A stretch of DNA of 64,000 nt from contig NZ_JADJNN010000012.1 of NCBI RefSeq assembly GCF_016714285.1, positions 26,040 to 90,039 on the forward strand, in the 5' to 3' direction. The stretch comes from Nannocystis sp. GTDB taxonomy: Bacteria; Myxococcota_A; Polyangia; Nannocystales; Nannocystaceae. The notes beneath the pieces are model-generated. The model did no database searches and was not told the origin of the DNA. It saw nothing but the letters and a program-made list of their open reading frames with translations. Shown here in pieces: positions 59,466-61,085 of this stretch. Each line of letters opens with the position of its first letter. Position 1 is the first letter of the stretch. The position numbers were made by a program, and so were the translations under genes.

Positions 59466-59635
59466 TCGCCGAGCGCGTGAATCTCGTCTGGGAACTCAGC
59501 CAAGAGCAGTGGGCGATGCTACCGGAGGTGGCGCATGCGAGGGCGCTCGAGCGGTTGCCACCTCGCACCTGAGTGCGTCCTGGATCTGATTCTGTTCAGC
59601 GGTCACCGGGCGTGCGAGCGGCATAGAGGGTCCTG

Positions 59636-59735
59636 CGCCTGGGGTGATGGCGCCGTCGAGGCTGGCGTGGTCGCCGGAGGGGGTGCCGTTGCCGAACATC
59701 TCGTGGCCGCCGTCGATGGAGCCACTCCAGCGCGC
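59636..59735 (-). pseudogene. degenerate fragment of a fourth copy of the paralog family (C-terminal domain remnant with internal deletion)
   Basis: ggggtgatggcgccgtcgagg...gtgccgttgccgaacatctcgtggccgccgtcgatggagcc matches the conserved 3' block of genes 1-3. Confidence 0.7.
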
Positions 59736-59751
59736 CCGCGCGTGCGGACGA

Positions 59752-60057
59752 TCATTCGACCGAAAGTGTATTGAGCCTCGCGTCGATGGCCCGGAGTATC
59801 GCTCCGCGAGTGCTATCTGTCATCCCAGTGACCTGAACGTGCTTTCGGAACCACGGTTTGCCTTTCTCTGCCACCAGAACGCCGAACAGCTCATCGGCGA
59901 AGGATTCGCTCAATGTGCGAATCCCTGTGCAATCTACGGTCACCGATTCGGTCGCGTGTGCGAGCATGTTGCGGATGGCGACGCGAATGCCCGCGCCAGT
60001 TGTACGGCTGCTGAGGTCAGTTCCGTAGTTAATCAGTACAATAAGCGCAGACGTCAT
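59752..60057 (-). CDS. small STAS-like (DUF4325-type) protein
   Basis: ATG 60057..60055 overlaps the GHKL ATPase stop as ATGA. About 100 aa, ...GIRVAIRNMLAHATESVTVDCTGIRTLSESFADELFG.... Confidence 0.6.
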   Translation of the reverse strand: MTSALIVLINYGTDLSSRTTGAGIRVAIRNMLAHATESVTVDCTGIRTLSESFADELFGVLVAEKGKPWFRKHVQVTGMTDSTRGAILRAIDARLNTLSVE

Positions 60058-60977
60058 AGGCCGAGATCCTCCGCCAAAGATTGCAAACGTGGAGATGAAA
60101 GGTCCCAGCTCATCGCCTGAGCGCTGGCCGGGAAGAGCGTAATGTTGAGCATGACGCCTGGCCAAGGCAGAGGTGTGAGCGCGTAAGCACTCGTGCCATC
60201 CTTGTTCATCGTAAACGAAGTGTCTCCTGTCCAGATCCAGAGCTCGCCACCGCTCGCGCGGATGAGCTCAGTCAGGAGGTGGAGACCCCATCCCATGTGG
60301 TGGTCTCGCTGATCCGATCCACCCTCCGATTCGGCGTAGGGGTCGCCTTGCACGATCGCGTCTTGCGGGAGTGTTCTGGCGGTGTGACGACCGGCGGTGT
60401 TGCCCTTCTTCAAGCACCATCGGATGGCATCCTCGTGATTCGTGATTGATGGTTGGGCCCGTCGGACGTTGCTCAAGAATCCGCACCCAGCATCCGCGAC
60501 CGAGAGCTCGAGGCGAGCCGGGTGGTCACTGCGACTTGGGTAGAACTGTGCCGCGGAAAATCCCCTCCCATCCGCATGAGAGGCAATATTATCATGCAAC
60601 TCGCCCACAACGCGTGCCATGGCATCGATCGCAGCGCGCGGCATTCCGCCGAGTTGGGCGAAGATGAGATCATTGATCGTTTGATTGCACGCTTCGATCT
60701 CTGCGTGGTGAAATAGCGTCGTGAGTGGGCTCCAAGTCTGGCCTTGCTGTCCCCGGCGGGCCTTGCTCATGGCCGCGTGATTGGCGGCGAGGGCGTCGTC
60801 GAGCCCGCTCAGCTTCGCGTACTCTTGAGTGTCGTTCACGAAATCTACATGCAATTGTCCGCGGGCGATGCGCGTGCATGCCAAGAACGTGGCGATCGCT
60901 GGCTGGATAAATCGAACCTCGATCGGCTCCTTGCGGCTCGCGCGCGACCACATGGTGATGACGGCTCTATCTAACAT
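60054..60977 (-). CDS. GHKL/HATPase_c-type ATPase (anti-sigma-factor-kinase-like)
   Basis: N box ELHDNIASHA. G1 box DAGCGF. G2 box GWGLHLL. Lower-GC context (about 57-60%). Confidence 0.7.
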   Translation of the reverse strand: MLDRAVITMWSRASRKEPIEVRFIQPAIATFLACTRIARGQLHVDFVNDTQEYAKLSGLDDALAANHAAMSKARRGQQGQTWSPLTTLFHHAEIEACNQTINDLIFAQLGGMPRAAIDAMARVVGELHDNIASHADGRGFSAAQFYPSRSDHPARLELSVADAGCGFLSNVRRAQPSITNHEDAIRWCLKKGNTAGRHTARTLPQDAIVQGDPYAESEGGSDQRDHHMGWGLHLLTELIRASGGELWIWTGDTSFTMNKDGTSAYALTPLPWPGVMLNITLFPASAQAMSWDLSSPRLQSLAEDLGL

Positions 60978-61085
60978 CCGCGGTGTCCTTGATGGTGCGA
61001 TCCCTGTTGCACTCTACACTGGAAGTGGTGCCCAGGCACGTGACGATTGTCCGTGTATTGTCTCACGAAAACGAGGACCAGGCTC

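Follow-up and report, generated by a model that had tools for sequence, protein, structure and literature searches.

A putative VapK/VapS-type kinase-substrate switch, apparently acquired as a two-gene cassette downstream of thrA in Nannocystis

Introduction

What might a pair of genes do that encodes a GHKL kinase-like protein and a small STAS-like partner, has a foreign base composition and stands directly downstream of thrA in a myxobacterial genome? We address this question for a locus in a 64-kb stretch of DNA from Nannocystis sp. (Myxococcota), which we call the window; all coordinates are positions in it. The GHKL kinase-like protein is referred to as K and its STAS-like partner as S. 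We favor, with moderate confidence, the reading that the two genes form a horizontally acquired, self-contained kinase-substrate switch of the CapK/CapS-VapK/VapS superfamily, which likely serves in anti-phage or stress defense.

The superfamily has been described in a single recent study (Chambers et al., EMBO J 2026; PMC13373217), and our literature search found no other paper that mentions it. CapK, a protein with helix-turn-helix (HTH), STAS and GHKL domains, is switched on by single-stranded DNA (ssDNA) and phosphorylates the repressor CapS, which carries a STAS domain followed by a winged HTH (wHTH). CapK and CapS control adjacent immune operons. The VapKSC system of Escherichia sp. E4736 consists of VapK (STAS-GHKL), VapS (a STAS domain with a C-terminal helix) and the PIN toxin VapC, and protects E. 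coli approximately 100-fold against phage Bas42. Activation by ssDNA was assayed for CapK and was inferred for VapK from a model and a mutant; similarly, phosphorylation of VapS by VapK was inferred from mutants and an AlphaFold 3 model, not from a kinase assay. The phospho-serine of CapS, S54, and the proposed one of VapS, S48, are found at the start of STAS helix 2 (PMC13373217), like S58 of SpoIIAA. An older survey had noted PIN.4 VapC genes coupled to DUF4325 genes (PMC5499597).

Results

K is a predicted GHKL kinase and a homologue of VapK

The K gene (60977..60054, minus strand) was delimited from its open reading frame (ORF) and an alignment of homologues, and encodes a protein of 307 amino acids. 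K has an N-terminal domain (residues ~1-110), which is alpha/beta in the AlphaFold2 (AF2) model, a GHKL kinase domain (~115-290) and, at the C-terminus, a short helix whose last residues are EDLGL. A first-pass annotation of the window had recognized the N, G1 and G2 boxes of a GHKL protein. All three are present, and their key residues are invariant across an alignment of 19 homologues: E126, N130 and H134 in the N box (pattern VGELHDN..SH), D162, G164 and G166 in G1 (DxGxG), and G229 and G231 in G2 (HxGxGL). SpoIIAB and RsbW are the best fold matches of K. A fold search of BFVD returned only generic GHKL matches, and a sequence search of the PDB with the kinase profile returned no match. By its motifs and modeled fold, K is a divergent GHKL domain protein.

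We compared K with VapK, whose sequence was taken from the AlphaFold 3 file of PMC13373217. Alignment of the K family profile to VapK with hhalign gave a probability of 98.6% and an E value of 8.8e-16, pairing VapK 115-286 with K 89-279, and BLASTP of K against VapK gave 28% identity (E 2e-14). N130 of K aligns with N160 of VapK. On these alignments, K is a sequence homologue of VapK and belongs to the CapK/CapS-VapK/VapS family. In a MAFFT alignment, F24-x-x-P26 in the N-terminal domain of K falls on F54-x-x-P57 of VapK, which includes the ssDNA-stacking residue F54 (W68 in CapK); phenylalanine, tryptophan or tyrosine is common at or beside this column. Residues 197-226 of K form an insertion of about 30 residues in the ATP lid (pattern Q.LP.D…NHH), which AF2 predicts to be disordered. 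This insertion is conserved in the clade to which K belongs and is absent from VapK and from the kinase of L042, a divergent relative described below.

S is a STAS-like protein with a candidate phospho-acceptor serine

The S gene (60057..59752, minus strand) encodes 101 amino acids that form a single DUF4325/STAS-like domain; a wHTH and a C-terminal extension are both absent. S scores 40.4 bits against the Pfam DUF4325 model, well above the gathering cut-off of 23 (E 2.5e-10), in agreement with its first-pass description as a STAS-like protein of the DUF4325 type and about 100 residues. The AF2 model has a STAS fold (predicted local distance difference test score, 92.6), in which helix 2 spans residues 51-65 and the last STAS helix residues 81-100. 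All of the 22 sequences compared have S52, S50 is nearly invariant, and both residues are at the N-terminus of helix 2. Foldseek ranked RsbS first, followed by stressosome STAS domains, SLC26 STAS domains and RsfB, which were mixed with macrodomains and designed hydrolases. Some of the S homologues from phages and plasmids carry 10-20 extra residues. Pfam searches detected no HTH in either K or S.

The two genes are arranged for translational coupling. As the first-pass annotation had noted, the S start codon (ATG, 60057-60055) overlaps the K stop codon (TGA, 60056-60054) in the tetranucleotide ATGA. A Shine-Dalgarno sequence, GGAGGA (60072-60067), lies within the last K codons, 9 nt upstream of the S start; this junction (60054..60072, minus strand) was read directly from the sequence. 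The conserved K tail, E-E/D-L-G-L, is encoded by GAGGAGCTGGGACTATGA (60054-60075; compared over 40 related loci). Because the same bases form the S Shine-Dalgarno sequence and start codon, conservation of the tail may in part be a translational constraint.

The NCBI entry for K is 299 amino acids long and places the start 8 codons after the ATG at 60977 (60953-60977). This start is probably too late, because homologues conserve the longer N-terminus (MLD..V.T.WSR), and an AAGGA ribosome-binding site (60990-60986) stands before it.

The two genes travel as a pair without a conserved third gene

A word-indexed search of 5.8 billion proteins returned only 19 relatives each for K and S; each protein has a database entry of 100% identity from Nannocystis, and looking up the exact sequence of S returned no contig. 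An exhaustive profile search of 1.84 billion representatives of 50%-identity clusters found 177 matches to K at E<=1e-30 and 738 at E<=1e-10. The best 150 of these that we listed are mostly about 300 residues long, and those that are shorter align to the profile only in part. We then gathered 42 related loci from genomes, viral contigs, phages and plasmids, which span 22-65% identity across phyla. S directly follows K in 41 of them, and the 42nd is truncated at its end. The junction is ATGA in 17 of 40 loci, and the two genes overlap or are separated by no more than 4 nt in 31 of 40. P0139, a metagenomic protein of 397 amino acids, is a natural K-S fusion with its STAS part at residues 298-385 (E 1.6e-22).

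The pair is found in Myxococcota, Planctomycetota, Alphaproteobacteria and Gammaproteobacteria (Pseudomonas, Acinetobacter and Pseudohongiella). It is also carried by a Leptospira plasmid and by the phages RSA1 (Ralstonia) and vB_SBP7 (Burkholderia). Six taxa of the gathered loci (Nannocystis, Ralstonia, Leptospira, Acinetobacter pittii, Pseudomonas monteilii and Pseudohongiella) were looked up in the vapKSC table of PMC13373217, and none is named there.

All-against-all clustering of the neighbors in the 42 loci found no conserved third gene, only prophage core genes. Pfam and PADLOC scans of 120 neighbor proteins from 32 loci found no recurrent partner and no PIN domain. The divergent locus L042 (viral contig, 9725-11519) is a K-S-PIN operon of the vapKSC type, in which the three genes overlap.

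Two side observations concern the distribution of such pairs. The DrmA model of the DISARM system (PDLC02567, 1750 positions) gave weak, collinear matches to K (model positions 122-212, E 0.016) and S (model positions 313-387, E 6e-5), beside which PADLOC returned only noise for the pair, and the L042 kinase matches the same model at its positions 74-252 (E 1.6e-6). These matches suggest that some DrmA helicases carry an N-terminal kinase-STAS fusion. A published table of the Francisella prophage FhaGI-1 lists a CI protein, a 293-aa hypothetical protein and a 112-aa DUF4325 protein in an arrangement that looks analogous (PMC7924643); tblastn searches found no link between this arrangement and the K-S family.

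Homologous pairs occupy mobile and defense-associated positions

The first-pass annotation had stated that paired HATPase_c and STAS-like proteins recur in defense and accessory islands, and the contexts of the homologues bear this out. In nine prophage or viral loci (L022 and L032-L039), the pair follows a P2-type gpA gene, sometimes with a DinI gene in between. Seven of the nine reach beyond the pair, and in these seven, portal and terminase genes then follow on the other strand. This cos-proximal end of P2-like prophages, between gpA and portal, is the old/tin hotspot for anti-phage cargo (Rousset et al. 2022, PMC9122126).

Other homologues have comparable surroundings. The pair follows int/attP at the genome end of RSA1 and the integrase gene of vB_SBP7. 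In L031 (9228-11233), the K gene overlaps the stop codon of a gene for a CI/LexA-like repressor, and a type III restriction enzyme gene precedes the pair in L017. On the Leptospira plasmid, the pair is located among insertion sequence elements, with a BrnA antitoxin family gene nearby. Across the loci, neighbors include integrases, resolvases, type I and type III restriction-modification (R-M) systems, PD-Lambda-1 and PDC-S20.

The cassette has a foreign composition and sits at a variable site

The lower GC content that the first-pass annotation ascribed to this islet is confirmed by measurement. The GC fraction of 59740-61085 is 0.59, the lowest of any 1.34-kb stretch in the window (mean 0.717, z = -4.2). 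GC at third codon positions is 0.69 in the K gene and 0.64 in the S gene, compared with 0.96 in thrA, 0.89 in a gene of the adjacent paralog array and 0.90 in a nearby lectin gene, so both GC content and codon usage deviate strongly from the flanks.

The flanks named earlier, thrA on one side and a paralog array with its remnant on the other, are also as described. thrA lies upstream on the same strand, with its stop codon at 61086-61088. DNA similarity to four related genomes, whose ThrA proteins are 80-88% identical, ends at 61090, within the last thrA codons. On the other side, homology to the paralog family resumes at 59726, 25 nt after the S stop codon. Because similarity ends at thrA and resumes at the paralog remnant, we delimit the acquired cassette to 59727..61085 (minus strand), about 1.36 kb that hold a 108-nt leader, the K gene and the S gene, and nothing else. 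The remnant (59641..59726, 86 nt, minus strand) marks the downstream edge. Three array copies match it at 83-85% identity over 76-84 nt. It lacks the 5' part of the gene, and its frame reads on as SIDGGHEMFGNGT...RCE with internal deletions.

The cassette is part of a variable interval (44426-61085) between thrA and a conserved NmrA/epimerase gene (43429-44425). This interval is 16.6 kb long in the window, 268 bp in the related locus L044 and about 9.7 kb in L043. L043 carries the Septu genes PtuA (E 8e-76) and PtuB (E 2e-39) together with genes for large secreted proteins. L045, whose ThrA protein is the same as that of L044, has a Gp49/HTH (HigBA-like) pair in the interval. The synteny comparison proposed by the first-pass annotation thus yielded a site directly 3' of thrA that varies: among relatives it is empty, as in L044, or holds the HigBA-like pair of L045, and Septu is located elsewhere in the interval. 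In Nannocystis, the position downstream of thrA is a small hotspot for insertions. Judging from composition and boundaries, the K-S cassette is horizontally acquired, and recently so at this position.

The leader (60978..61085, minus strand), 108 nt between the thrA stop codon and the K start, is the presumed promoter region. It has no similarity to the sequence 3' of thrA in relatives. A consensus scan of the leader found no sigma-70-type promoter, a result that says little for a myxobacterium, and a promoter and terminator scan returned matches at chance level. Rfam gave no match between 58.8 and 61.3 kb, and an NCBIfam scan gave only noise. The cassette flanks contain no direct or inverted repeats beyond short, chance-level matches. 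There is no integrase at the cassette and no tRNA gene in 40-64 kb.

Other features of the window

The paralog array (55996-59052, minus strand) comprises at least three genes for Cys-rich proteins that are probably secreted or lipoproteins and have no Pfam match. The paralogs share a conserved C-terminal part, ...GSIDGGHELFGNGT...DSNLDGAITPADL...VIDVYLRCE. At the cassette edge there is a fourth, truncated copy; described as part of the array, this remnant extends over 59560-59730. The 136-bp tandem repeat reported earlier in this region is instead a pair of 119-nt copies (59179-59446) that are 149 nt apart, 91% identical and contain an internal 27-nt sub-repeat; TRF called no tandem array there, and Rfam gave no match.

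A gene at 54306-55835 (plus strand) encodes an unusual fusion protein that joins two lectin domains of the OAA family (E 1e-43) to a glyoxalase/bleomycin-resistance domain and also matches beta/gamma-crystallin weakly. At 50395-51705 (plus strand) there is a gene for a class III adenylate/guanylate cyclase (Pfam E 2e-61), which also matches the Pycsar PycC model (E 1e-18); this second match probably reflects generic cyclase similarity.

Discussion

How could two proteins of this kind work together? By its motifs, fold and homology, K is a GHKL serine kinase of the SpoIIAB/RsbW/VapK type, and S would be its substrate and partner, held at a fixed stoichiometry by translational coupling. By analogy with S58 of SpoIIAA, S54 of CapS and S48 of VapS, K may phosphorylate S at Ser52, or possibly Ser50. 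The trigger would be a stress, infection or damage signal sensed by the N-terminal domain of K. The leading candidate is ssDNA, weakly supported and by analogy only, because homology between the N-terminal domains of K and VapK is not significant. Phosphorylation would dissolve a K-S or S-target complex and thereby change what S, or K freed from S, can bind. The target would lie outside the cassette, with the output delivered in trans, because the clade has no VapC, S carries no domain for binding DNA, and a conserved third gene is missing. In the most economical version, K itself would be the effector and S its antidote. The most likely role is anti-phage or stress defense, carried as a mobile "moron".

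The first-pass annotation had left the role of the pair open. It is less open than that assessment suggested, given the kinship to VapK/VapS, yet none of the effectors described for the family occurs in this clade. The putative anti-phage function rests on context, namely the P2 hotspot, the integrase, CI-like repressor and R-M neighbors, and the variable site, and the search for a third gene yielded no effector. Several further observations weigh against a defense switch of the CapK/CapS-VapK/VapS kind. Many of the loci are found among housekeeping genes and not in defense islands. PADLOC-DB 2.0.0 has no model for the pair and gave no significant system match, so the proposed search of defense databases came back empty. 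K itself falls below the Pfam gathering thresholds for HATPase_c (20.0 bits vs 26.4) and HATPase_c_2 (15.9 vs 27.4), and its assignment to GHKL therefore rests on motifs and fold; the profile searches that the first-pass annotation had called for thus support the DUF4325 half of its description and leave the HATPase_c half below cut-off. When the S family profile was searched against the PDB, Escherichia VapS (9z7o) was the only STAS chain retrieved, and weakly (E 0.39); in that alignment, S48 of VapS falls between S50 and S52. With the isolated N-terminal domain of K, hhalign found only a 14-residue match to VapK, RFLRPNAVAFLGGT vs RFIQPAIATFLACT (E 0.37), which includes F54 of VapK (F24 in K), and no similarity to the S family. 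We do not claim this domain as a STAS domain or an ssDNA sensor, because neither comparison is significant. Finally, the clade-specific lid insertion may mean that substrate or regulation differs from VapK.

Two related proposals go further and specify an output. We hold it possible, at rather low confidence, that the pairs, which form hundreds of sequence clusters ranging from myxobacteria to P2-like prophages, are complete, minimal two-gene immune or abortive-infection systems. In these, K, activated by damage or infection, would be the effector after phosphorylating and shedding S, or else phospho-S would be, and the lid insertion would be the target interface. The effector could act on a conserved target in host or phage, either by phosphorylating it or by sequestering it in an anti-sigma-like manner. 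Slightly more doubtful is a minimal toxin-antitoxin or abortive-infection pair in which K is the effector, either a growth-arresting kinase of essential host or phage proteins or a SpoIIAB-style inhibitor that binds its target, and S a pseudo-substrate antidote, with K being released once it is activated and phosphorylates S. This explanation overlaps with the switch reading that we favor and differs from it in naming the output. It fits the absence of a conserved third gene from the 42 loci and the way the pair alone fills the P2 slot between gpA/DinI and portal. Tight coupling and a natural fusion are typical of stoichiometry control in toxin-antidote pairs, and the nearest folds, SpoIIAB and RsbW, have exactly such a dual partner logic. 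The lid insertion, which only the effector-less clade has, could serve to bind the target, but it is predicted to be disordered. An upstream putative toxin is also the less common order for type II toxin-antitoxin systems, and the reported toxin of VapKSC is VapC, not VapK.

The remaining explanations fare worse. The first-pass annotation likened the pair to an anti-sigma-like switch. The comparison captured the type, a kinase-STAS switch, and missed the affiliation, since the nearest relative is VapK and not a sigma module. In the classical form of such a switch, K would be an anti-sigma factor and S an anti-anti-sigma factor, and the sigma factor that they control would have its gene at another place in the Nannocystis genome. 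Anti-sigma kinases are indeed the best fold matches of K, S has the STAS serine, and genes for extracytoplasmic function sigma factors account for 2 of the 120 neighbor proteins. Nevertheless, we consider a classical partner-switching module improbable and have rejected it. As stated earlier for this locus, no sigma factor or other partner is nearby: the Pfam scan of ORFs around the islet found no sigma factor, phosphatase or other domain. Neither a sigma factor nor a PP2C phosphatase is conserved across the loci, and we found no classical sigma-regulon module at the cassette or among these loci. The cassette is foreign DNA, and its relatives in phages, P2-like prophages, a Leptospira plasmid, Planctomycetota and Gammaproteobacteria do not fit a host-specific sigma regulon. 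K is also double SpoIIAB in size and, like VapK, has a further domain at its N-terminus, and its HATPase_c_2 score is the low one given above. A decayed vapKSC or capKS leftover, non-functional or a selfish passenger that has lost its effector, is very unlikely. Decay is visible around its insertion site, in the truncated paralog and the degenerate repeats, and true K-S-PIN operons such as L042 do exist. We nonetheless rejected this explanation, because neither ORF is disrupted, the catalytic and phospho-acceptor residues are all in place, and the effector-less architecture is conserved. The layout recurs in 41 of 42 loci across phyla together with clade-specific features, a pattern that repeated independent loss would not yield, and the clade comprises hundreds of 50%-identity clusters, mostly of about 300 residues among those listed. 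We give least credence of all to a CapKS-type regulator of neighboring genes such as thrA or the paralog array. CapK and CapS control adjacent operons, and the cassette is directly 3' of thrA on the same strand; but S is a bare 101-aa STAS domain without a wHTH, K has no HTH, only a gene remnant lies downstream, and neighbors differ in every locus. Without either DNA-binding domain or a downstream operon, this candidate was also rejected.

The CapK/CapS-VapK/VapS systems are known only with an attached output, either a repressor domain or VapC, and a sister clade that lacks one is widespread. If the pair alone protects against phage, it would be among the smallest immune systems that combine sensor and effector, with a partner-switching kinase as the weapon. 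If a host factor is needed, that factor would identify a trans-acting target of DNA-damage signaling.

Comparison with known systems places the pair more closely. The SpoIIAB-SpoIIAA and RsbW-RsbV modules share its E-x-x-x-N-x-x-x-H N box and the STAS helix-2 serine, but they work with a sigma factor and a PP2C phosphatase, which are neither in the cassette nor conserved near its homologues. SpoIIAB is half the length of K, which has an extra domain, and the K-S pair is instead borne by phages and plasmids and patchily distributed. Homologous pairs occupy the slot described for the P2 hotspot cargo old, tin and PARIS, although the pair is not among the systems tested in PMC9122126; the hotspot is a context of homologues only, as there is no prophage in this window. 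Like the pair, CapK/CapS couples a GHKL kinase to a following STAS substrate with a conserved serine in mobile or defense contexts, sometimes downstream of R-M genes (as in L017). In contrast, CapK has an additional N-terminal HTH that K lacks, and CapS is a wHTH repressor of a downstream operon, whereas S has no DNA-binding domain and no such operon follows here.

VapKSC is the closest system. It too places the kinase gene before that of a small STAS/DUF4325 protein with a helix-2 serine, in a standalone mobile operon. VapK and K are of near-equal length (302 vs 307 residues), both end in (E/D)LG tails, and they share the motifs VxE(L/I)xxNxxxH, DxGxG, A(I/L)xW(C/A)xxxGNT and GLGLxLLxELVR. 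The differences are that the VapC/PIN gene is absent here and in 41 of 42 related loci, that the inhibitory C-terminal helix of VapS (94-116) has no counterpart in S, which stops at residue 101, and that the N-terminal domain of VapK is longer and built differently from that of K, with no significant homology. On these likenesses and differences, the K-S pair is best placed as an effector-less sister clade of VapK/VapS, a member of a described family and a new variant of it without an attached output.

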